64,000 bases of DNA from Candidatus Bathyarchaeota archaeon (GCA_963739305.1 CAVTZU010000011.1:1-64000), one strand, 5' to 3'; positions 7,046 to 57,432 are shown, counted from the first letter of the stretch. The notes: a model not told the origin generated them from the letters alone. Numbers and translations: made by a program.

Positions 7046-8587
7046 CTATCCCACAAACACGGTCTTGCTCTTCTCTTTTGCCGGCTGGCTCTCTTCAACG
7101 TACTTTTCAAACAAAGGTATCTGAATAGGCACGGCAAATCTTGTGAAGTTGCTGCTCACAATGGCTTCGCCCTTGTCAAGACTTGCAATCGTTCTGTCGT
7201 CGGACGACAGATCTTGAGCCGCGCTCTCCATAACCGCTTGTCTTTCAGCTGCCAGCTCGTTTCCAAGGATTATCTTCGTGTTCATGTTGGCAAGAATCGT
7301 GCGTGGAATCAGACTGACCAGCTGCGTTATCGCGATCAAGCCCACCTTGAACTTCCTTCCTTCCCTTGCAATCGTGCTGTAAATGTTGTCTCCACGAGCA
7401 GTGAGCACCTCTGAGCCTAGCACTCTGGGGGCTTCTTCAATCACGACGCTGACAACGGGCTTTTCCTCCAATGTTCCTTCTGACTTATACCTCTGATATC
7501 GATGGAAGATTCCGCCAGAGATTATGCTTCCGATCAGCAGCTCAGCCTCGTCAACCAGCCTTGACGTGTCAATAACTACCTTCTTACCGTCCTCAAGAGC
7601 CTTCGTAATCTCCTTAGTGGTGGCCAAACCTGCGGTGTCGCTGAAAACGCCGCTTCTACATTGGAAGTTACCGCTGTCGTCTATGTAAACACCCAGAACA
7701 TTATCGAATCTCCTCTTCAACACCTCAAGCGTCCTAGGGGCAACAAGATCACCAATATCCGTTCCCCGCACAATATTCTCAATCCACTGGTCTCCAAACC
7801 TGTTGTGGAACAGAGTAATGGCATCGTGCTGAGCATCAGTGAATGCGACTATTCCCTGGAAGTGCCCAGGCAAAATCGATCTGAGATTTATTACAAGAGT
7901 ATTTGTCCCCGGAACGGGCGTCGTGGAATAATACAGCAAACTATGTTTCGCAGCAGGGTGATCCTTCAGCCCTTTGCCGTGCCTGCCGTAGTACTCGTCG
8001 TGAGGATCCAGAACCAATATGCCCATAGAATCCTGGGCCAGAACGCTCCACAACATGACCTTGACCAAGTTGCTCTTTCCTCTTCCAGTCGTAGCCGGAA
8101 TCAGCACGTGATGTGTCAGCATGTCTTCGCCGTTAACGTACACACCTACGTCGATCACCTTCGACCCGCTCCGAACCTTTCCCAGATACACAGGGTTCTT
8201 TGGCTTAGTAAGAAACCACAGATCCTTCTCAGTAACGTGCCTGATCGTTGAAAAGAATGCGGGAAGAGTCTTGGGTATTTTCGGCTCGCTGTCCTTGCTC
8301 ACTCGCAAGACAGCTTTGATTTGTGCTATGACATAGTTCCTCAATTGCGGCTCAAGAAACTCCATGTTGGCACCTACACCTTCAAGTTTCATGCCAGCCA
8401 AGAGCTCTCGAACCAACTGCGGAACCTGGCTTCCATATAGAAGCTCGAAAGCCTGAAGAAGAACATATCCTCCGTCCTCCTCGGCTACGAGAAGGTCTCC
8501 GATCTCTATCTCTCCACCTGCCTTCTCCCTTGCCAAAATCTGTCCGGTTTTTCCAGCGATTATCTGACCCGAAACTTCCAACGCCAT
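7046..8587 (-). CDS. herA: HerA helicase/ATPase
   Basis: HAS-barrel-like N-terminus; ATTGRGKS; DPHDEY; IEEA; AREGRKF; adjacent to mre11 and nurA. Confidence 0.9.
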
Positions 8588-8594
8588 TCCATCA

Positions 8595-9743
8595 TCAACC
8601 CTTCAACACATCTAACACGCCGTGAGCGTCACCCGAGCAAACGTGCCTCGATATCTTCTTCCACATACCACGCTTGGACAATTCGGACATAAGCGGCACC
8701 CTGTAAGCATCTATCTCGTCACCGCTCACTCTGGCAAAACTGTCAGCGTCTATTAGACCGTATGGATATCCCGGAAAGCTTATGTCTTTCGAATTGCTGG
8801 CCAAGGCTGAAGTGACCTTGCAAAGGTCTTCTTCACTCATTTTCCTCGCCTGCTCGCCATAAATCTCGTACCTGAAAACGTACCTGGCACTCTCGTGAAG
8901 CTTGACCACGTAAATGAAGGCGTTATGCAAGACGTTAGCGACCTTGGCTATCGGAAGACACCAAGGCCCCTTCACCGCGTAATCCTCAGCCAACTTCTGC
9001 ACTGCACCCAACAGTGAAAGACCAGTAGTCGTGAACAGCGTACTCGTCTTTGAAATTCCAGCAAAAATGACTCCTTTCTCCATCGTTGCTTCGACTGCTC
9101 GCGCCAAGTACTTATACTCATTAGTGAGACTCGTCTGCAAACTGCCGTCATGAACTATCATATCTCCCTTTTCAAGCTCACTTTCAATAACATGCTTAGA
9201 AAATTCCCATTCAGCAAACCTTCTCGCAACAGAAGCAACATGCCTTATATCCGCCCTCTGATTTCCAAGCGTGACCGTTCTGTCAAGCGAACTGAACGAC
9301 AAGAGCTGATCAGGAACTAAGCCCTCGAACTCATGTTTCAAGGGAAAGACAGAGGTGTCATAGAATATCCCGTTATCTCTAAAGCTTGCCGTCGTAACAG
9401 AGTAGAACTCTACCTTTCTAGGCAAGATCTTAGGAAGAATTCTTTCTCGGCCTTTGAAAACGTTGAAGTACACCCTGTTTATTTGAGCTGAAAAGTTCGG
9501 TGCACCAATTATTTCCTGGTTCCCACCATCCAAGAAGGCCGTGCGGATGCTCGGTTCCACGTCCTTGATTGGAACAAAATTGGAGGAAGGAAACGGCAAC
9601 GTTTCATAGTCTGGATTGCCGAAATACGGCTGACCTAAATCGTCTTCCATAACGCTTGAGTCCAAAAACTCCGCGATTCTGCTAGAAATCTCCCTGGACA
9701 TCTGTCGATCACATGAATATTCAAACTTCCTTGTTAAAAGCAT
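8595..9743 (-). CDS. nurA: NurA 5'-3' nuclease (probable start 9701)
   Basis: FLDGG, HDGSL, GISKTS and [15 protein letters not shown] motifs. Confidence 0.88.
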
Positions 9744-48030: not shown

Positions 48031-48321
48031 TTGTCTGATGAGCAGAGAAGAACAAAATACGACATATACGCCGACATCATAGAGATCATCGCCAGAAAAG
48101 GACTGTGTTCTCTAACAAGAGTTTCCTATGGAGCCAACATGCCAGTGGACCGAACAAAGAAAGAGCTGACCTTCTTGGTTGCGCATGGCTTCATAACCGA
48201 AGTGACTCTGGAAGACTCAAAGAAGTATCGAGCGACCAAATGGGGACTCGAATACCTCGAAACCTTCAAACATATGAGGAAATTCTTCGCTGCCCTAGAG
48301 GATCGACCTCACAACTTGTGA
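48031..48321 (+). CDS. Winged-helix transcriptional regulator
   Basis: RRTKYDIYADII..LTRVSYGANM..YRATKWGLEYL. Confidence 0.85.
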   Translation: MSDEQRRTKYDIYADIIEIIARKGLCSLTRVSYGANMPVDRTKKELTFLVAHGFITEVTLEDSKKYRATKWGLEYLETFKHMRKFFAALEDRPHNL

Positions 48322-48689: not shown

Positions 48690-49919
48690 GTGAAAACGAT
48701 GAGCAGCGCAGCTTCAATCCCATCAAGAACCACAGTGACCTTGGACGTCGTAAACGGAGACCTCGAGATAGGCAAGCACACGATCGTAAGAGGAACTGGT
48801 AACCCTCCAGCGGTCAAGGTTAACGGGGCAGTCTACTGCGAAGGCCACAACGTCTTCGAATGCAGCCTATCAGCACGAGAGCTCAACGCCGAAAACTCAG
48901 TAACAGTTCATGGCGACCTAGAGGTCAAAGATGACGTTGAAATCGAAGATGGTCGCCTTGAGGTCTATGGAAAAATGACAGCTGACGACGTGGACGTAGA
49001 TGACGCGGTGTTCGTTAGCAAAGACCTTCACGCAACCGACGTTGAGGTAGGTGGAAGCTTGAGAGTTGAGGGAAAAACCATGGTTGAAGACATAGACGTA
49101 GGCGGAACCTTCGAAGCAAAAGGCGAAGTCGAGGCGGACAGTGTAGACGTTGGCGGAAGACTTTCCATCGACTCAAAAGTTGACATCAAGAGCATAGACG
49201 TCGGTGGAACCGCAAGCGTAGCAGGAGGAATCATCCGCCAGATTGATGTTGGAGGAACCTTCGAGTCAAAAGGTCCGTTACAATTCGAAAAGATAGACGT
49301 AGGAGGAACGGTTGACCTCGCAGGAACAAGCAAAGGAGGAGAAATCGAGGTCGGTGGCTTTCTTAGAGCCAATGGCGATCTAACGTTTGCGGAACTGGAA
49401 GCCGGCGGCAAGGTACAGATCAAAGGCCAAACTCTAGGCGAAAGCATGGATGTCGGAGGAACCGTTGACATCGACGGATCTTTGGGACTTTCTGGTACAA
49501 TGGAAGTCGGAGGCAGAGCGGACATCAGCGGAGAGATCACAACACGAAACATAGAAATCGGCGGAACTTTGCGCGCGAGAAAAGTCACGGCGCAAGAACA
49601 CGTAGAAGTTGGAGGATCAATCAACACCGGGGAAGGTGTTCTAGCACGTTCCGTTGAAATAGGAAACAGGGGAACAGTGCATGGCTCCATACGCGCAGAG
49701 GAAATAGACGTCGGAAAAGGCGCCGAAGTTGAAGACCTATACGGCAAGCATATCGTGTTGAGAAATGAAGCAAGCGCCGGCAACGTTTATGGCGAAAACT
49801 TGACGATAGAATCTCACTGCAGGATAAATGGCGAAGTACAATACACCAACGAACTGAAGCAAGGCGAACATATTTCGTATGCACAACCACCGAAGCGGGT
49901 TACAATACTCCCCCATTGA
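48690..49919 (+). CDS. Bactofilin-like (polymer-forming) beta-solenoid repeat protein
   Basis: About 15 tandem ~17-aa repeats with an (I/V)(D/E)VGG core; no signal peptide. Confidence 0.8.
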   Translation: MKTMSSAASIPSRTTVTLDVVNGDLEIGKHTIVRGTGNPPAVKVNGAVYCEGHNVFECSLSARELNAENSVTVHGDLEVKDDVEIEDGRLEVYGKMTADDVDVDDAVFVSKDLHATDVEVGGSLRVEGKTMVEDIDVGGTFEAKGEVEADSVDVGGRLSIDSKVDIKSIDVGGTASVAGGIIRQIDVGGTFESKGPLQFEKIDVGGTVDLAGTSKGGEIEVGGFLRANGDLTFAELEAGGKVQIKGQTLGESMDVGGTVDIDGSLGLSGTMEVGGRADISGEITTRNIEIGGTLRARKVTAQEHVEVGGSINTGEGVLARSVEIGNRGTVHGSIRAEEIDVGKGAEVEDLYGKHIVLRNEASAGNVYGENLTIESHCRINGEVQYTNELKQGEHISYAQPPKRVTILPH

Positions 49920-49931
49920 ACTGTAAAGGAA

Positions 49932-50915
49932 TCAATCCTTCTTTGGAACCGCCAAGTCTGATATGTCCACGCTGTGTTCATATATCTGCCTGAGGAAAGA
50001 AGCCACAGCGAGAATTTGGGGAACGAAGTCAAGCGACTGAGACCGCGCTAATTCCTCAATGTCTGCAAATTCCTTTTCAACCTTCGACCGCATACTGCGA
50101 ACGCCCTCCGCCATCCCGATATCGCCTGAAAGAAAGGCGCCTAGCGCTTTGTCATGGGCCTCAAACCCGACCGTTTGGAGGTTCAAGAACAATTTACCTA
50201 GCTTTTTGTTGAGCTTCGCGCCACGTAACTCCATGATTTTCCGTGCAGTCCGAACACAGTCATCTCCAATGGCTTCCACAAGGCTCGCTGCCAAACGATA
50301 GTCCAGGCAATCGATCGGGCTGACTCCTAGTTTTTCACTTAGACTCGGGTTTTGAATTATCGTGCGCAGGATTCGCACTAGCAGAAAGTACAACCTGTTG
50401 CTTTCATCGTCACGTGCTATGACACTCTTCGCAAGCTGCAAGTCGCCTTCAACAAAGGCGTTGATAACATCTCGATACATCCCAGCAGTTATCGAGTAAC
50501 CTCTCCGAAGAATCTTTTCCGGGCGAAATCCCGAAGGTTCCAGCAAGCATTGAAGGACAATCCCCGAATGATCTTCTTCAACAATCTCTAGCCCAACCAG
50601 ATTACGAACTGTCGTCTTCACGGCATCACGAACATCAAACCCGATTTTATCCTTTCCCTCGACGCGTATGATGTCAAAACCAAGAAGATATTTTGCGATA
50701 ATCTGACGCCCAAGATACGGCCCAGGCTCCAATACAGCGGATCTAAGAGTTGGTTCAGCCCCAAACCTTGTGTCGACTGTGAGCGTGCCATCAACAGTCT
50801 CGCTCACATCGACCACTCCACCCTTCTGTAAGCCATGGCGCTCGGCCCAAGACTTCGGCAAGCAAACAAAGAAAGTGCCCCCAGCGGTACGCTGAACCTT
50901 ACGCAATTCATGCAT
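49932..50915 (-). CDS. phoU: PhoU-family regulator with N-terminal AbrB domain
   Basis: RKVQRTAGGTFFVCLPKSW; two PhoU repeats (RDDESNRLYFL, EAIGD). Confidence 0.88.
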   Translation of the reverse strand: MHELRKVQRTAGGTFFVCLPKSWAERHGLQKGGVVDVSETVDGTLTVDTRFGAEPTLRSAVLEPGPYLGRQIIAKYLLGFDIIRVEGKDKIGFDVRDAVKTTVRNLVGLEIVEEDHSGIVLQCLLEPSGFRPEKILRRGYSITAGMYRDVINAFVEGDLQLAKSVIARDDESNRLYFLLVRILRTIIQNPSLSEKLGVSPIDCLDYRLAASLVEAIGDDCVRTARKIMELRGAKLNKKLGKLFLNLQTVGFEAHDKALGAFLSGDIGMAEGVRSMRSKVEKEFADIEELARSQSLDFVPQILAVASFLRQIYEHSVDISDLAVPKKD

Positions 50916-51144
50916 TTTTGTAATCCCCAACGATAGGGTATTTGACACTGAAGTATTAAAACATCTGAAGACGGCGGAAACATTAAGGCCTCAGGATCAT
51001 ATTTGAACGAAGCAAACTGTATAGCGTGCGTACAAAAAGAGGACCGAACACGTTAAGAGCCGCAGAAGAGATACGAAAGAAAGGGAGAAAGTCAAACCAC
51101 CGGCTTAGTTGTGCCAAAGAAGATAGAGGGGAGTACCCGCCAGC

Positions 51145-52710
51145 ATGAGCGAGCATGAGAAACTTCAGAAAGCTGTCGAGCTTACTATAGCAGCAGGTTA
51201 CCAACTCAACAAAGACGCTTTTGAGTTCTTGAGCATGCTGCCAACGACGGAAGACCCCGCTTTGTTTATTACCAAAGCAATTCATCAGATCGAAAAACTT
51301 CAAGACAAGCCATTCTTTATCGATAAACAGTTTCTACAAGAACTTGTTTCACCATCAGGTCTCTCGAAGGAAGTGACAAACCAAGAATTAGAAGCTCACG
51401 GAACAGAAGAACGAGAGAGAACTTTAGGTCAGGCAATCACGGGGAAAACGACCTTCCATCCCTACGCAAAGGATATCGAGGCGAACATGAAGGTTCTTGA
51501 AGACCCAGGTTCACAGATAAGTTCAGGCGGTACGATCGAAGATTACGTAAGCTACTTCCAAGACCGATTTAGACAACTTGAGAGACTGTTGAGGCAAAGA
51601 ATGGATGTTAAGAGCGCAGCATCAGTCATGGACGCCATAAAGGCTCAAGCCAGCTCAAGACTCAAGGTCATAGGAATGCTCACTGAAAAAAGAGAATCGA
51701 AGCAGAAGACCTTTCTGACCATCGAAGATCTGAAGGCAAGCACCGTAGTATTGGTGCCGCAAAATGCGTCTCTGGACTTGCAGACAAAGACAAGAAACCT
51801 CTTGCTGGATCAAGTCATATGCATCAGCGTGCTCAAGTCGAGAAGTGGCCTGCTGGTTGCTGAAGATATAACACTGCCAGACATCGCGCAGAAATATCAG
51901 CACAAAGCGTCCGAGCCCATCTACGCAGTTCTCACCTCCGATATGCACGTCGGAAGCAAACTCTTCCTGAGAGATGCATTCCACCGGTTCGTTCTATGGC
52001 TTAATGGCAGATACGGCGACGACAGAACGCGTGACATAGCAAGCCACGTCAAATATGTCCTAATCGCAGGAGATATCGTCGACGGAATTGGCGTCTACCC
52101 AAACCAAGCCAAGGAGCTCGCAATAAAGGACGTCAACAAACAATACAGGCTCGCTGCCAGATACCTAGAGCACATCCCAGACTACATCGAAGTCATAATC
52201 ACACCTGGAAACCACGACGCACCCAGAAAGGCGCTACCCCAACCACCGATAGAAGACGCATACTTGGAGTCACTTGCAGAGACGAGGAAAGTCCACTCGC
52301 TAGGAGACCCCTGTCTGGTAAGCCTGCACGGAGTCGAGATCTTGATGTACCATGGGCGCAGCCTAGACGACGTGATCTCAACCGTGCCGGGAATGAGCCA
52401 CAGCCACCCCGAAAAAGCGATGCGACTGTTGCTTCAGGCACGGCATCTGGCCCCGCTCTACGGCGGAAAAACTCCGTTGTCACCAGAGAAGAGGGACTCT
52501 CTTGTCGTCGACCGGGTGCCGGACATCTTCCATGTAGGACATGTCCACGCCTTGGAATATGCAGCTTACAGGGGGGTTCTCAACGTCAACTCGGGATGTT
52601 GGCAGGAGCGGACAGGATATATGGTCAGGAACGGTTTCACACCCATGCCCGCAAAGGTCCCAGTAGTAAATCTTCAAACTCTAGAAACCACCGTGGTCCC
52701 GTTTGCTTGA
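51145..52710 (+). CDS. polB: DNA polymerase D small (exonuclease) subunit DP1
   Basis: SDMHVGS, AGDIVDGIGVYP, PGNHD, YHG, HLAP, GHVH. Confidence 0.95.
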   Translation: MSEHEKLQKAVELTIAAGYQLNKDAFEFLSMLPTTEDPALFITKAIHQIEKLQDKPFFIDKQFLQELVSPSGLSKEVTNQELEAHGTEERERTLGQAITGKTTFHPYAKDIEANMKVLEDPGSQISSGGTIEDYVSYFQDRFRQLERLLRQRMDVKSAASVMDAIKAQASSRLKVIGMLTEKRESKQKTFLTIEDLKASTVVLVPQNASLDLQTKTRNLLLDQVICISVLKSRSGLLVAEDITLPDIAQKYQHKASEPIYAVLTSDMHVGSKLFLRDAFHRFVLWLNGRYGDDRTRDIASHVKYVLIAGDIVDGIGVYPNQAKELAIKDVNKQYRLAARYLEHIPDYIEVIITPGNHDAPRKALPQPPIEDAYLESLAETRKVHSLGDPCLVSLHGVEILMYHGRSLDDVISTVPGMSHSHPEKAMRLLLQARHLAPLYGGKTPLSPEKRDSLVVDRVPDIFHVGHVHALEYAAYRGVLNVNSGCWQERTGYMVRNGFTPMPAKVPVVNLQTLETTVVPFA

Positions 52711-52756: not shown

Positions 52757-54007
52757 TCAATGTCTTCTGTCAGGTCTTTTTGAAAGACAACGGGGCTCGT
52801 AAGCCACAAGCCGTCCAAGCCTATTGTCCGCAGTGAAGACATCCCGAATGAGGCTACGTGCTATTTCTAGGCGTATCTTCTTGGTTCGCCCGTACCTCCC
52901 CATACTCACAACCTTCGCGTTCAAAAGGCCCATTGCGTCCAACTCGTTTATCAACGTACTCAAACGCCGTTGAGTCAATGGTGTAATACCTAACTCTCCG
53001 CTCAGTTCGTCATATACATCAAAAATCTCACCTGTAATCGCCCCTCGGGAACTATTTCTGTCAAGATGATAAATGCTCAGCGTCACAAGCTTAGAGTGCA
53101 AAGTGAGGTTGTTCAAGGCTTCCACAACACGATTGTGCTCAATGTGTTTCTCGGCTTCGCGAACATGCTCCTCTGTAACAACGTTCCCTCCCTTCCGCTC
53201 AGCCACTTCGCCAGCGACGCGCAGAAGATCTAAGGCTCGTCGTGCATCTCCGTGTTCTGCTGCCGCAAGAGCCGCACAAAGACCGAGTGCAGCATCAGAT
53301 AATGCATTCTCGAGGAAAGCAGCGCCCGCGCGTTCAGCAAGAATGTTCCGCAACTCGTCCGCGTCATAAGGCCTAAAAACCATCTCTTCCTCACTTAACG
53401 AACTGAGAACCCTTGGATCCAAGAACTCCTTTAGCCGTAAATCATTAGATATGCCTATGAGAGTCACCTTGCTTTTCTTAAGAACTTCGTTCATTCTAGT
53501 CAGCTCATATAGCAGACCGTCTCCACACGTCCTGATCAAAGCGTCAGCTTCATCTAAAACCACCATGAAAACTACACCAGAGACTTCTAGGCCAACCTTG
53601 AACCTGTCAAACACTTCTCCAACGGAGAGCCCAGTGAAAGGGACGTTTACGCCTAAAGCTTGGCACATGCTAGCAAAGGTGCGATATTCAGAGCCAGCTA
53701 AGCGGCAGTTCACGTAGCATAATTTGATGGGTGCACCGAACTCCTTGGCCTTGAATTCCAGGCGACCCAGCACGTACTTGACCACTGCTGTCTTTCCAGT
53801 ACCTGTTTTTCCGTAGATGAGAACATTGGAGCTTCTTGCCCCCTTGAGCAGTGGAGCTACTTTCTCACCAAGCTGCCTAATCTGATCTTCCCTATGAGGT
53901 AACCTACTTGGAAGATAGTCGTGACGCAACACCTCGCGATCCTTGAAAATCCTCACGTTGCTAACGAACTTGTCAAATACATCATCAAGTAAAGCAGGAT
54001 CGGTCAT
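52757..54007 (-). CDS. cdc6: Orc1/Cdc6 replication initiator
   Basis: YGKTGTGKT, LDEAD, HGDARRALDLLR, GRYGRT wHTH. Confidence 0.97.
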   Translation of the reverse strand: MTDPALLDDVFDKFVSNVRIFKDREVLRHDYLPSRLPHREDQIRQLGEKVAPLLKGARSSNVLIYGKTGTGKTAVVKYVLGRLEFKAKEFGAPIKLCYVNCRLAGSEYRTFASMCQALGVNVPFTGLSVGEVFDRFKVGLEVSGVVFMVVLDEADALIRTCGDGLLYELTRMNEVLKKSKVTLIGISNDLRLKEFLDPRVLSSLSEEEMVFRPYDADELRNILAERAGAAFLENALSDAALGLCAALAAAEHGDARRALDLLRVAGEVAERKGGNVVTEEHVREAEKHIEHNRVVEALNNLTLHSKLVTLSIYHLDRNSSRGAITGEIFDVYDELSGELGITPLTQRRLSTLINELDAMGLLNAKVVSMGRYGRTKKIRLEIARSLIRDVFTADNRLGRLVAYEPRCLSKRPDRRH

Positions 54008-54044
54008 AGCTACACATCTCAGAGTTCAGGAGTAACAGCACTTC

Positions 54045-54741
54045 TTCCTGTGGAGGACATAACACCTGTCGTACAGAAATCTAAATTTCGAACACGATAT
54101 TCCTAAAGGTAAGTGACTTCTCAATTGGAACCTGCAAAACAGAATGGACACACACCACCGCTTCGAGTGGAAATCTGTATCTATCTGAAGAATAATGTTG
54201 ATTCCTTCTGTTTAGAAGAAATATACTCCGTTTGGTAATAGTATCGAACGTATTATAATCATTATCCTTAAACATTTTAGAGGTATTCAAGAAAACTTCA
54301 ACACTTAAGCAAGAATTAACACAGTTCAACACACCTGTTCCACCGGAAACATAGGGGTGCCGCGCTCCGAACAATAACATACGAATATCCTTCTCTGGCC
54401 AGCTCTACAATATGCCTGAGTCTTCATTCTAGGCGTGAGTTCCTCCCATCAATGACACACCTCCGGTGACGTTTGCGCAGCTTTTCTTTTCACTAATCGC
54501 GAACGTCGTGTGAAATTGACTTCTTAATGTCTCTAGACGGGCTCCTTTTCTGATTCTATGCCGCCCTTTATGCCTCTCCACTGTGAATAGCTCACCCCTA
54601 CGCTTCTACTGGAGATTCCAATTAGAATGCAGCCTGCTCTTGTTTTTCCCTTTCAGAGGAGCTGTTACATATGTAATGGGGAAAGAACTGGAAAGAGGGT
54701 TCGCTGGGTCATTTGAAGCTCAGTTTGATGCTTCCCTGGAG
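54045..54741. promoter_or_regulatory. Replication origin (oriC) with ORB elements and an AT-rich unwinding region
   Basis: ORBs TTCCACCGGAAACATAGGGGT (+, 54338-54358), TTCCACTCGAAGCGGTGGTGT (-, 54152-54172), CTCCAGTAGAAGCGTAGGGGT (-, 54594-54614); mini-ORBs near 54045, 54651, 54685, 54732; AT-rich 54173-54337; upstream of cdc6. Confidence 0.85.
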
Positions 54742-54814
54742 GCACTATTCACCAAAACAGCTATAACCTTTGAACTGTGAAATTGTAAACAACAGATCTA
54801 GGTGCTGCCAACCG

Positions 54815-55246
54815 ATGCCTACAAGGAAAATGCGCGTCGAACTGTTTGACGGCGAAGGCAACCGCTATTCGATAAGCTTTCAGGGACAGATTACCAGAGA
54901 TAAGGCCCTACGTCTGCTTGACCTGGTTGAACTCTTGGGCGGAGTCCCAACCGGGGGGAGCAACCCAAGCACCGCGTCTCCTTCTCCAGCCTTCGAATTA
55001 ACAAAGTTCGAACGAATGAGGACTATGGTTGTTAGGCACTTCCCTTTGGTATGGTTTTCGTCGAGAGAGGTCCAATCGGTTTTTGAGCAGGAATATAAAG
55101 AACCGATTGCCCTAAGCACCGTTGCCACTTATCTGGCAAGAATGGCGGCCAAGGGGCTCGTCTTGAAGACAGGTCCCAGTAACAGCCTGAAGTACAAGGT
55201 TGCAACGAATGTTACCCGTGCGGCCCTAGAACAACATGTACCATAA
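54815..55246 (+). CDS. Two-domain protein with a C-terminal winged helix
   Basis: WFSSREVQSVFEQEY..IALSTVATYLARMAAKGLVLKTG..YKV. Confidence 0.8.
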   Translation: MPTRKMRVELFDGEGNRYSISFQGQITRDKALRLLDLVELLGGVPTGGSNPSTASPSPAFELTKFERMRTMVVRHFPLVWFSSREVQSVFEQEYKEPIALSTVATYLARMAAKGLVLKTGPSNSLKYKVATNVTRAALEQHVP

Positions 55247-55271
55247 ACTTTGCAATCAAAGCTTTAGAATG

Positions 55272-55994
55272 TCAGGTTGTTTGACTTTCCGTTTTCCTTA
55301 GGAACTTTTCCATTTCTTTCTTGACGCTGTACTTGAATGGGATCTTGCTGGTGTCTCTTTCCAAGTAGCCCTCTTCGTATAATTTCTTCATCAGACGCGC
55401 TGTGTGTTCTCTGCTTAGCTTCACGTGTTCTTTGATCTCAGGTGCCGTTTTTGGCCCCTCAGAGGCAAGCAACTCTAAGGCAGACAGCTCGGTTTCTGTA
55501 AGTTGCGCTATTGCCTTGTCCTTTCTCATGGGGATGACAGCTTCGAAACTTGCTTCGGGGACAGCGGGCAACTGGGTCGCTTTCTGCTCGAGTTCGGACA
55601 GTTTGACCTTGAGGGCGTCCTGTGACGTGGCGAGGTCACGCAAATTCTTCTCCGTAATATCCAAGCGAGAAACAGCGGATGTTCTGCCGTCATTTTCTGC
55701 CTGAACTTTAGCCTCTAGGTCGCCCATGCGTTTCTCGACACCTTTTGCAATGTCAAGAGTGCTTCCTGCCTTTGAGGCGATAGTCTCCACCTTGTACGCT
55801 ACGATTTCAAGCTTGTCGCCTTCGCGTTTGAATTGCCTGTTGAAGCTCAAGACGATGTCCTCGACGGCCATTTTGGCCTTCTCAAACTCCTTCTGAGCAC
55901 GGCGGAGATATCTGTAATACTCGATGGCTGCGAAAACCGTTACTGCTGCTAAGCAAGTCACGAGGGCCAGGATCAATTCATCCAAGTGTATCAC
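55272..55994 (-). CDS. Membrane-anchored coiled-coil winged-helix DNA-binding protein
   Basis: N-terminal TM (LILALVTCLAAVTVFAAI); ~110-aa heptad region; C-terminal wHTH LTETELSALELL..TAPEIKEHVKLSREHTARLMKKLYEEGYLER. Confidence 0.85.
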   Translation of the reverse strand: MIHLDELILALVTCLAAVTVFAAIEYYRYLRRAQKEFEKAKMAVEDIVLSFNRQFKREGDKLEIVAYKVETIASKAGSTLDIAKGVEKRMGDLEAKVQAENDGRTSAVSRLDITEKNLRDLATSQDALKVKLSELEQKATQLPAVPEASFEAVIPMRKDKAIAQLTETELSALELLASEGPKTAPEIKEHVKLSREHTARLMKKLYEEGYLERDTSKIPFKYSVKKEMEKFLRKTESQTT

Positions 55995-56283
55995 CTGTGA
56001 TACATACGTGATTAGTTGTGACCTTTGTCACGTTGCATCACAGATCACATCTTGACGGTTGGGAATATAAAATTTACGGTAGAGTCCATGAAATCTGAGA
56101 ACCATGACGTCACGCGTCACAGTCTGACGGCAAATTCGATTGTCTGACCTCGCTTATGGGTATTCAGAGATAAGGCTATTTGCTGCCATTGTTTTCAATT
56201 ATAGGCATATTTGCTGGCTTCTTGCGCGTGGTTTGTGAGGTACCTGAGAAAATATGATTTTGTGGTGTGATTTGTGATGTCAC
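55990..56283. repeat. GTGAY/RTCAC half-site array 1 (12 copies)
   Basis: Includes the dyad GTGAT-N5-GTGAC-N4-GTCAC-N5-ATCAC (56008-56041), ATGACGTCAC (56104) and GTGATGTCAC (56274). Confidence 0.85.
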
Positions 56284-56768
56284 AATTGGCTTTCAGATGG
56301 ACTGGATAGCTGTTTTAGACTTGTTTCAAGCTCCTCTCTGAGCAATTCAATGACCTTGACGCGCTCGCTTTGTTCTGTGGGTGCGTTGGGTATGTTCCTA
56401 TAGGCCTCTAAGTATGTCTTCAGTTTGTTGGCGATTTCCAGGTAGGGGTCGAGAGTTGTGCTCTCGAAGACTCCTAAGTACCCCAGAAGTATGACGGTAT
56501 AAATGGATTTTATGACATTGTCCTTTGCCTGTTTTAATGTCCTGTTAAAGGATCCGCGGCTTATTTTGGCCTTTGTTAGCCTTAAGCTGGCTTTCTCGTC
56601 GTATTTCAACGATTTGCCAGCCAATTGCTCGGATAATATGTCAATGAGGAGCGTCTCGAGCTGTGTTTTCGTTAAATGGCTGCTTGAGGCGATGATTTTG
56701 GCAACGGGGTCGTTAATGGAGCTTGTCAGCCAAGATTGAACACTTTCTTTAAGCCTCAAGTCGCTCAC
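56280..56768 (-). CDS. Putative HTH DNA-binding protein (sigma4/Bat-HTH-like)
   Basis: LTKTQLETLL....ISRGSFNRTLKQAKDNV pattern. Confidence 0.7.
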   Translation of the reverse strand: MSDLRLKESVQSWLTSSINDPVAKIIASSSHLTKTQLETLLIDILSEQLAGKSLKYDEKASLRLTKAKISRGSFNRTLKQAKDNVIKSIYTVILLGYLGVFESTTLDPYLEIANKLKTYLEAYRNIPNAPTEQSERVKVIELLREELETSLKQLSSPSESQL

Positions 56769-56968
56769 CTGTGGGGACTATGCAAATGGATACGGTTCTG
56801 TATACGGGCTCGGCTTTTAAGGCCTTCGGATTCTTAATGCCAGGGATTGGTGCCGGCTGGAGAGGGGGGTATTGGGCTCTTTGTGCGGTGAATGGCTGTC
56901 AGGACCGACGATCGGGCGTAAGAGGCGCGGAGAGTGGTGGAAATTGGCGAATAGGGAAGGAATGGGTC

Positions 56969-57371
56969 GTGATGACGCTTGACCTAGAATTCAGAGTCAC
57001 ATCACTTCAGTTGTTAATGAAAGAGAGTGAGTCAATTTTTGGGTAAAGATGAAGTGTGGAGAAGACTGGGCAGGACGTGGTGCAAACCATGTTATGAAAC
57101 GAGGTGATTAGCGTGTCTTTGGCGTGCGCATCGGAAAGGATCATGTGTTGACGACGTTACAGGTCGCATCATGAATCAATGTTGATGCGTGAAGTGGGAG
57201 AATCTGTGTGGTGAACGGATTTCGTGATACGACTGAAGCGTCGTTTGATTCTTTGCGTTGCATCGTGACGTCACTTGTCACAAGTAAGATCACGTGTGAC
57301 GCTTTCGCGTTGACGAATTCTTCATGTTGGTGTGATGTGATTGTGATTCGACGCCCGATCACAAACGTCAA
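56969..57371. repeat. GTGAY/RTCAC half-site array 2 (14 copies)
   Basis: GTCACATCAC 56996; perfect palindrome GTGACGTCAC 57265; GTGATGTGATTGTGAT 57332. Confidence 0.85.
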
Positions 57372-57432
57372 CTTTGATTGAAGTTGTTACTATCGCTGCA
57401 GAAAGACTGTTCAAAGGCTGAGATTCCGGGTT

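Follow-up and report, generated by a model that had tools for sequence, protein, structure and literature searches.

Question and proposal

Does a dense array of short repeats, lying beside a predicted archaeal replication origin and a gene for a membrane-anchored DNA-binding protein, serve to hold the origin at the membrane, or does it regulate the genes among which it lies? The question is raised by a locus in a 64,000-nucleotide stretch from a Candidatus Bathyarchaeota archaeon (GCA_963739305.1 CAVTZU010000011.1:1-64000; the window in what follows), of which a first-pass annotation, made from the sequence alone, had read positions 54,045 to 57,371 as an ATPase-free system that ties the origin to the membrane or couples initiation to membrane growth. 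Bathyarchaeia are among the most abundant uncultured archaea, and the literature that we searched yielded no paper addressing their chromosome organisation, replication or segregation; nor did any paper found there describe the present module in its title or abstract, which is no proof that none exists. We propose, with a probability of roughly one half, that the locus is a self-contained regulatory module, distributed across Bathyarchaeia, in which a putative membrane-anchored DNA binder, TMCC, binds the repeat array. The array most likely controls the genes of the module and may also hold the DNA of the locus at the membrane, whereas a Cdc6-linked origin seems not to be needed, the place of the module in the replication-gene neighbourhood being explained by ancestral gene order.

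Three HTH genes lie at the locus, and the array surrounds a conserved pair of them, TMCC and P162. All were confirmed as open reading frames at the coordinates given in the first-pass annotation, whose descriptions of them also hold, if weakly for wHTH143, which has a sub-threshold winged-helix match only:

55272..55994, minus strand: TMCC, 240 amino acids (aa), with an N-terminal transmembrane (TM) helix, a coiled coil of ~130 aa and a C-terminal MarR/TrmB-type winged helix-turn-helix (wHTH)
54815..55246, plus strand: wHTH143, 143 aa, made up of a small N-terminal domain and, C-terminally, one resembling a winged helix
56280..56768, minus strand: P162, 162 aa, with a sigma4/Tfx-like helix-turn-helix (HTH; residues ~29-100) and a C-terminal helical hairpin

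A half-site array confined to one locus

The repeats are half-sites of the form GTGAY/RTCAC that crowd the two gaps on either side of P162, with 10 in gap 1, between TMCC and P162 (285 bp, 55995-56279), and 14 in gap 2, beyond P162 (664 bp, 56769-57432); together with two more that straddle gene ends (55990 and 56279), they account for the approximately 26 reported at first. Background density is far lower, at 205 half-sites in the 64-kb window (3.2 per kb), and all 300-bp intervals with at least five half-sites start within 55751-57251, where the maximum is 11, against at most four away from the two gaps. Throughout the 2.317-Mb genome there are just two clusters of at least eight half-sites per 100 bp, both at this locus, and three five-site clusters elsewhere approximate the chance expectation; the palindromic form GTGAYRTCAC has three genomic copies, two of them here. 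Chance and base composition as sources of the array are ruled out by these counts and by control patterns that score 0.

We sampled relatives at three depths, namely 20 order-level loci (L025-L044), class-level loci and phylum genomes. Conservation of the array, on which the first-pass interpretation depended, is borne out in the orthologous gaps: all 20 order-level loci carry it in gap 1, with 4-12 half-sites (7-12 in 19 of them) against backgrounds of 2.0-4.7 per kb. The anatomy of the gap is fixed and, in the direction of transcription, comprises site A, site B, a TATA-like box and site C:

56267..56283, minus strand: site A, the 17-bp composite GTGACATCACAAATCAC overlapping the P162 stop codon, an exact pattern match found at the same place in relatives
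56104..56120, no strand assigned: site B, a GTGAY-N2-GTGAY-GTCAT composite ~40 bp upstream of the TMCC TATA-like box
56062..56078, minus strand: TMCC TATA-like box, TTTTATAT in the window and ACCATAANNTTTAAAT in relatives, a conserved block of gap 1 with a presumed promoter function
55990..56048, no strand assigned: site C, seven half-sites between the TMCC TATA-like box and the start codon

Site A takes the form GTGAYRTCAC-NN-RTCAC on the P162 stop codon and site B the form GTGAY-NN-GTGAY-GTCAT, and site C opens with GTGAT-NN-GTGAT-GCAAC and continues with two or three RTCAC elements one helical turn apart, ending at the TMCC start. Nineteen order-level loci have a match to the TATA-like box; site C starts 22-26 bp after it in 15 of these, and the nearest upstream half-site mostly lies 40-43 bp before it. 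Start-to-start distances between neighbouring half-sites are likewise quantised, with 26 inverted pairs at 5 bp, 58 direct pairs at 7 bp and 29 direct pairs at 10-11 bp among 209 sites.

Neither gap holds a tRNA or an Rfam match for non-coding RNA at E ≤ 1. In contigs of two metagenome runs, 204 bp of gap 1 (56052-56257) are skipped; the joint is seen at low depth and one of its sides spans no more than 24 letters, and the skip may be either a deletion variant between repeats or an artefact.

The array follows TMCC, and P162 has a palindrome of its own

The 17-mer composite, written as GTGAYRTCACNNRTCAC, is found in 24 of 31 relatives, where all 36 matches fall at this locus and the reversed control gives 0. 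Within the class it occurs in 49 of 151 genomes (74 matches, control 0), each of which also encodes TMCC, a gene present in 103 of the 151, and none of the 48 TMCC-negative genomes has it; comparison of coordinates places every class-level match at most ~3 kb from TMCC. Half-site density follows the same division, as P162-centred class-level loci with TMCC hold 9-13 half-sites per 300 bp (L075, L076, L078) and loci that have P162 and mostly wHTH143 without TMCC reach at most 3-4 and show no array (L077, L079, L080, L081). We left out of the array counts the GTGAY clusters in HypF genes (L099, L107) and those within the TMCC gene of L089, all of which seem to be coding coincidence.

P162 is preceded by a different element:

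56788..56821, minus strand: P162 promoter, a TATA-like CTTAAAAG followed by the palindrome GTATACAGAACCGTATCC with a TACA-N4-YGTA core

In relatives the palindrome reads GTATACAAAACTGTATCC and again stands just after the TATA-like box, and in 49 of 59 loci the TACA-N4-YGTA core is found close to the P162 start, compared with 1.6% of 2950 control windows. The palindrome, whose 18-mer pattern occurs once in the genome and whose strict form occurs twice, is also present in loci that lack TMCC or wHTH143. With the 17-mer tracking TMCC and the palindrome tracking P162, the locus thus has two private cis-elements, one for each protein.

A site that outlasts the gene around it

Gap 2 is not simply non-coding, as had been annotated, for it corresponds to the remnant of an aminotransferase gene that remains intact in nine relatives:

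56822..57432, plus strand: decayed class I/II aminotransferase remnant with no detectable coding similarity left
57265..57300, plus strand: site D, GTGACGTCAC-TT-GTCAC...ATCAC-GT-GTGAC, which pairs with site A in inverted orientation at 998 bp
57332..57362, no strand assigned: site E, four half-sites just past the CN-hydrolase stop codon

The aminotransferase gene of relatives is transcribed divergently from P162. Among the order-level loci, nine have it intact, three have it split between frames and three keep weak remnants (one at E 8e-7); in the window and five other loci tblastn finds no match at E ≤ 10, bar single matches at E ~ 0.5 in L033 and L044. Faulty assembly, and not pseudogene formation, may account for the three frame-split genes.

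In relatives the aminotransferase coding sequence contains site D, with the pattern RTCAC-AC-GTGAY-N6-GTGAY-N2-GTGAYRTCAC, and the site has been kept in the window and in L025, L029, L030 and L036 even though the gene there is decayed or absent and the flanks are unalignable. Its survival while the host gene decayed shows selection on a site that is not part of a promoter. Site D repeats site A in reverse complement, and the two bracket P162, at a distance of 946-1126 bp in the seven genomes in which both flank P162 and are exact matches (G000, G012, G013, G016, G018, G023 and G026), and part of site E may descend from aminotransferase codons. The possibility that A and D delimit an invertible P162 segment was rejected, as contigs of four DNA runs contain no strand-changing joint, a search that rare forms would escape.

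The proteins of the locus

TMCC starts with a hydrophobic helix and then basic residues, coiled coils are matched along its middle part, and its residues 165-224 match both PF01047 MarR (E 1.4e-7; 31.7 bits against a cut-off of 24.6) and PF01978 TrmB (E 3.8e-7; 30.3 bits against 25.6), which assigns the C-terminus to the MarR/TrmB winged-helix domains, the same domains being precomputed for its homologues. The likeness is restricted to a 59-position wHTH core and does not make TMCC a member of the MarR family in the strict sense of a soluble, dimeric, ligand-responsive repressor of ~150 aa whose N- and C-terminal helices build the dimer interface and the ligand pocket, TMCC having 240 aa with TM helix and coiled coil ahead of the wHTH; a Pfam search at E ≤ 0.1 gives no MerR match, MarR and TrmB being the best families. 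Just a few residues are predicted to lie outside the membrane, leaving the protein without a sensor domain. TMCC is encoded once in the genome, and its 4447 homologues bear automatic names only, such as 'winged helix DNA-binding protein'.

The sub-threshold match of wHTH143 is to Penicillinase_R (E 0.0025; 18.6 bits against a cut-off of 22.6). The protein is conserved in an alignment of 28 sequences, and it adjoins Cdc6 in L079, where P162 does not.

P162 is the most conserved of the three, at 73-79% identity within the genus versus 58-63% for TMCC, and was detected in 181 of 401 phylum genomes; it has more than 4142 homologues, and among the 120 matches listed every name given is 'hypothetical protein'. 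Neither Pfam nor NCBIfam returns a match, Sigma70_r4 and Tfx included, and a sequence profile search of the PDB was empty, so that its description draws on structural models with a pLDDT of 82 at full length and 90 for the N-terminal 100 residues. The N-terminal model resembles the HTH domains of LuxR and sigma-70 region 4 and the archaeal Tfx-family protein EnfR at a modest Z of ~6: of the top 30 structure matches 19 are sigma region 4 or sigma-anti-sigma entries, two are of LuxR type (EsrB, DesR) and one is EnfR, with a best Z of just 6.3. EnfR itself (8hno_A) superposes at Z 6.0 and an rmsd of 1.7 Å over 61 residues with 25% identity, and Foldseek assigns 8hno a probability of 0.94, but an E of 1.0. 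The 'eighth-note' fold of EnfR is absent from P162, whose residues 103-162 form a helical hairpin, and fold searches with the full-length protein find generic helical-hairpin matches only; a protein atlas offers Bathyarchaeota hypothetical clusters only, apart from a faint pointer to Sigma70_r4 (score 0.79, 14% of members). By this atlas and by the names given to homologues, the organism belongs to Bathyarchaeia. None of the three proteins matches a ParB or ribbon-helix-helix (RHH) family, and among the generic HTH matches of the P162 model Spo0J and ParB reach Z 4.4-4.5 only.

In L025 (9093-9561; G001, a single-contig genome) P162 appears as two overlapping pieces in different frames, from a frameshift or a sequencing error. 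In another class, three loci of family f44 (L090, L091 and L093) carry wHTH143 and P162 adjacent and divergent without TMCC or Cdc6, so that the association of the three genes seems to centre on P162.

Origin neighbourhood

The small subunit gene of DNA polymerase D (PolD), DP1, at 51145-52710 on the plus strand, is followed by the initiator gene and the predicted origin, in the 807-bp gap between Cdc6 and wHTH143:

52757..54007, minus strand: Orc1/Cdc6 initiator gene, 416 aa (Pfam Cdc6_C 6.1e-25, Cdc6_lid 2.7e-24)
54008..54814, no strand assigned: predicted oriC, intergenic, with degenerate elements resembling origin recognition boxes (ORBs) at 54044, 54161, 54339 and 54603 and an AT-rich stretch

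Past gap 2 lie genes for a CN-hydrolase, NAD synthetase, Elf1, a putative GGGP synthase (by our reading, with no family scan) and the PolD large subunit, DP2. The order DP1-Cdc6-gap-wHTH143-TMCC-gap-P162...DP2 is common to all 20 order-level loci fetched, a synteny that confirms the linkage to cdc6, DP1 and DP2 on which the first-pass interpretation leaned. Along the 156-kb contig, cumulative GC skew traces a V whose lowest point falls at 54-56 kb. The gap of the window contains looser forms only and no strict TCCANTGGA ORB core, of which most relatives have one to three in the orthologous gap, and 9-mers of the TTCCAGTGGAA type recur in up to 13 of the 20 orthologous gaps; half-sites of the array number just two in the predicted origin. 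ORB repeats beside cdc6, degenerate here, and a switch in strand composition are the marks of an Orc1/Cdc6-linked oriC, and the predicted origin is supported by Cdc6, the degenerate ORB elements and the GC-skew minimum. The origin neighbourhood of the first-pass annotation thus stands, on Cdc6 and GC skew, although the elements of its ORB cluster are degenerate in the window.

At the order level the ORB/Cdc6 gap lies 1-3 kb from the module in 19 of 20 loci, the twentieth being cut by a contig end. Among 20 further Bathyarchaeia loci centred on TMCC, from 14 families, P162 is present in 19 and the PolD subunit genes adjoin TMCC in all, whereas Cdc6 lies within 10 kb in only 12. The other eight loci, from four families, have no Cdc6 within 10 kb and no wHTH143 (P162 persists in seven), and in the four of them that we inspected GTGAY arrays were confirmed by eye. 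No strict ORB core occupies the Cdc6-wHTH143 position in any of the eight, and two (L100 and L114) have cores elsewhere in the locus. In the five genomes with such Cdc6-less loci that were searched (families f73, f80 and f18), the sole Cdc6 is of a paralogue type, 30-34% identical, and in one that is assembled as a single contig it lies ~290 kb from TMCC. Ten of 20 distant P162-centred loci have Cdc6 no more than 10 kb away, the remaining 10 showing P162 with TMCC, P162 with wHTH143, P162 alone or wHTH143 alone. Ancestrally, then, the module lay near the origin, yet it is retained where that origin is gone, and its presence without a nearby Cdc6 in 8 of 20 class-level loci weakens the idea of an origin tether. 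The genome of the window (G000) itself has a second Orc1/Cdc6 paralogue, 30% identical (contig C17:40178-41278), and it is this type alone that the five genomes keep, having lost the window-type Cdc6, wHTH143 and the ORB gap.

The absence of a ParA/SegA ATPase from the locus, as first annotated, holds for the 44-64 kb part of the window, in which no ATPase of this type was found and where the genes of 48-64 kb were all identified; matches to the CbiA family lie on other contigs, together with one sub-threshold match at C11:82218, outside the window. The broader description of the system as ATPase-free applies to this genome but not to all relatives, as 7 of the 20 order-level loci have an insert of 2.6-2.9 kb between wHTH143 and TMCC, which in the two inspected (L026:5554-8137 and L038:6127-8659) encodes NurA-like and HerA-like ATPase genes on the wHTH143 strand, one of the two NurA-like genes passing Pfam NurA. 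This insert-type pair is absent from the genome of the window, and also from the 20 distant P162-centred loci searched with both proteins; it may once have belonged to the module and been lost, or may be a defence or repair pair that was inserted. The window has distant HerA-like (25-28% identity) and NurA-like matches at 7094-9119 on the minus strand, presumably the canonical repair pair.

A partner ATPase concealed between P162 and TMCC in further families was considered as well and rejected, the 2.3-kb insert there being, as read from its translation with no family scan, a HypF-like gene on the opposite strand. The HypF-like insert is found in several Bathyarchaeia families (L099:7233-9557; L107:6672-8999), and its GTGAY-rich stretches coincide with conserved HypF codons. 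Upstream of DP1 are an HTH_45 winged-helix gene (48031-48321, plus strand), a gene of cytoskeletal type near the origin cluster that encodes a 409-aa bactofilin-repeat protein (48690-49919, plus strand) and a gene for a PhoU protein with an AbrB/MazE-like N-terminus (49932-50948, minus strand), all three syntenic in many relatives.

Regulation, anchoring or replication

From the anatomy of the array, its conservation, its uniqueness in the genome and its co-occurrence with TMCC, we infer a scheme of binding, repression and looping in which TMCC would be a single-pass membrane protein whose cytoplasmic coiled coil carries the winged helix, and the GTGAY array would be its only strong genomic target. 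Clusters B and C, which flank the TATA box of TMCC itself, would bring about autorepression, and the inverted pair A/D around P162 would supply auxiliary operators, looped or bridged via the coiled coil, or roadblocks that also control P162; P162, in turn, would be a sigma4/Tfx-like HTH dimer that autoregulates via the TACA-N4-TGTA palindrome after its own TATA box. Promoter geometry, quantised spacing, genomic uniqueness and co-occurrence all point to TMCC as a self-repressing binder of the array, and the heavy site load, the conserved sites away from promoters and the missing sensor domain leave room for a structural role. If the binder is membrane-anchored, occupancy of the array would necessarily bring the DNA to the membrane. 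Origin tethering does not appear to be the conserved purpose of the module, given the families that keep it far from any Cdc6.

Several observations weigh against this regulatory reading. The assignment of GTGAY to TMCC draws on co-occurrence among related and thus non-independent genomes, 54 of the 103 TMCC-positive class genomes lack the exact 17-mer (the loci of family f73 that were inspected have half-sites with other spacers), and some half-sites in other lineages fall in conserved HypF or aminotransferase codons, maybe by coding coincidence. Spacings of 5 or 7 bp are narrower than is usual for the palindromes of MarR-type dimers. In addition, sites A and D stand away from promoters, and ~25 half-sites in five or six clusters, with the binder's own locus as the sole strong target and no sensor, would go beyond simple autoregulation; the heavy site load fits a structural role as well.

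The structural alternative is that TMCC and the array form a single centromere-like point that ties the origin-proximal, PolD-containing region to the membrane without a dedicated ATPase, promoter overlap serving only as feedback, in the manner of plasmid centromeres. Its appeal lies in the TMCC architecture of TM anchor, coiled coil and wHTH with no extracellular sensor domain, in a large, genomically unique array whose non-promoter sites A and D are under selection, and in the proximity to the ORB/Cdc6 gap (1-3 kb), shared by 19 of the 20 loci at the order level and by 12 of the 20 at the class level. Precedents can be cited for both components, a parS of plasmid pSM19035 with the same core pentamer and 7-bp phasing (PMC9499535) and a RocS whose membrane-binding helix can be replaced by TM domains (bioRxiv 10.64898/2026.03.06.710092). 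We nevertheless regard such an anchor as doubtful, since eight class-level loci retain TMCC with neither Cdc6 within 10 kb nor a strict ORB core in the Cdc6 position, the only Cdc6 of the single-contig genome is ~290 kb off, the sites form one patch of ~1.4 kb rather than being dispersed over hundreds of kb like ram or ricS, and the site geometry at the TMCC promoter matches that of archaeal repressor operators. The same low weight attaches to its extended version, an archaeal, ATPase-independent chromosome-membrane anchor analogous to RacA, RocS and RicO, in which P162 would be a soluble regulator coupling expression of the locus to the state of anchoring. The first-pass interpretation is partly supported: its HTH genes, array and origin neighbourhood exist and are conserved, whereas the tether itself is weakened by the promoter-type site placement, the Cdc6-less loci and the single patch.

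Reading of the array by P162, wHTH143 or an unlinked factor, with TMCC merely a regulated gene, is suggested by the two DNA-binding candidates beside the array, which brackets P162, the most conserved of the three proteins; we judge it improbable, as loci with P162 and wHTH143 but without TMCC (L077, L079, L080, L081) have no array, the 17-mer occurs in 0 of 48 TMCC-negative class genomes, and P162 bears a palindrome of its own that follows it across the phylum. That the array is a replication element, be it a platform for an accessory initiator, another origin or a barrier to forks or transcription that shields the origin region, would fit its position next to Cdc6/ORB at the GC-skew minimum and, in all Bathyarchaeia loci examined, in the interval flanked by the two PolD subunit genes, and yet this appears very improbable: the array contains no AT-rich unwinding element, the ORB gap itself holds only two half-sites, and the array persists where Cdc6 and the strict ORB cores in that position are gone, tracking TMCC and not Cdc6.

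Significance and comparison with known systems

The locus brings together two uncharacterised protein families, each with thousands of members, and two private cis-elements. Should TMCC do no more than autoregulate, it would exemplify an archaeal transcription factor that is tethered to the membrane and has looping operators. Should it anchor DNA, it would be the first counterpart in archaea, to judge by the literature searched, of the bacterial origin-membrane anchors. Site D is under either reading a clean natural experiment, an operator that has outlived the decay of its host gene.

Archaeal segregation systems such as Sulfolobus SegAB and pNOB8 AspA-ParBA combine a site-specific binder, with sites near its own operon, and a Walker-type ATPase alongside. 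The present locus differs in having no Walker-type partition ATPase, and with neither a ParA/SegA ATPase nor a ParB, SegB or RHH binder it falls outside the ParABS and SegAB systems. Closer to the regulatory reading are the lac and gal operons, in which a main promoter operator is combined with auxiliary sites hundreds of bp away, some of them intragenic, such as lac O2 in lacZ and gal OI in galE. The looping repressors of lac and gal are soluble and ligand-controlled, unlike the binder proposed here, which would be membrane-anchored and has no recognisable ligand or sensor domain. For P162 the counterpart is EnfR (TON_1525, PDB 8hno), described as a dimeric repressor on a promoter pseudo-palindrome (PMC10570040); the modelled N-terminal domain of P162 superposes on the sigma-70 region-4-like HTH and long helix of EnfR, and P162 differs by extra N-terminal helices and by its C-terminal helical hairpin in place of the alpha+beta 'note-head'.

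RacA/ram of Bacillus subtilis, RocS of Streptococcus pneumoniae and RicO/ricS of Staphylococcus aureus are presented as proteins that unite a winged helix, a self-interacting coiled coil and membrane targeting and that act on origin-proximal sites (bioRxiv 10.64898/2026.03.06.710092). TMCC resembles them, in architecture only, by joining a DNA-binding domain, a coiled coil and a membrane element in one polypeptide. The three are bacterial, with an N-terminal MerR-type DNA-binding domain and membrane contact via an amphipathic helix or DivIVA, whereas in TMCC the domain order is reversed, the anchor is a true TM helix and the wHTH is of MarR/TrmB type, with no homology detected. Their dispersed origin-proximal sites also have no parallel here, as clusters and composites occur at this locus only, in the genome and in relatives: nine ricS sites are reported over ~700 kb, compared with ~25 half-sites in one 1.4-kb locus.

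The parS of pSM19035 consists of 7-bp WATCACW repeats that lie in both orientations across promoters and also serve as operators (PMC9499535). Its omega protein is a ribbon-helix-helix protein that works with the ParA ATPase delta on contiguous heptads, 7-10 per site, in contrast to the blocks of two or three units, 10-250 bp apart, with a presumed membrane-anchored wHTH binder and no ParA at the locus, that we describe here. What the omega/parS system shares with the Bathyarchaeia array is the ATCAC core, the 7-bp phasing, the use of direct and inverted repeats and the overlap with promoters (PMC9499535).

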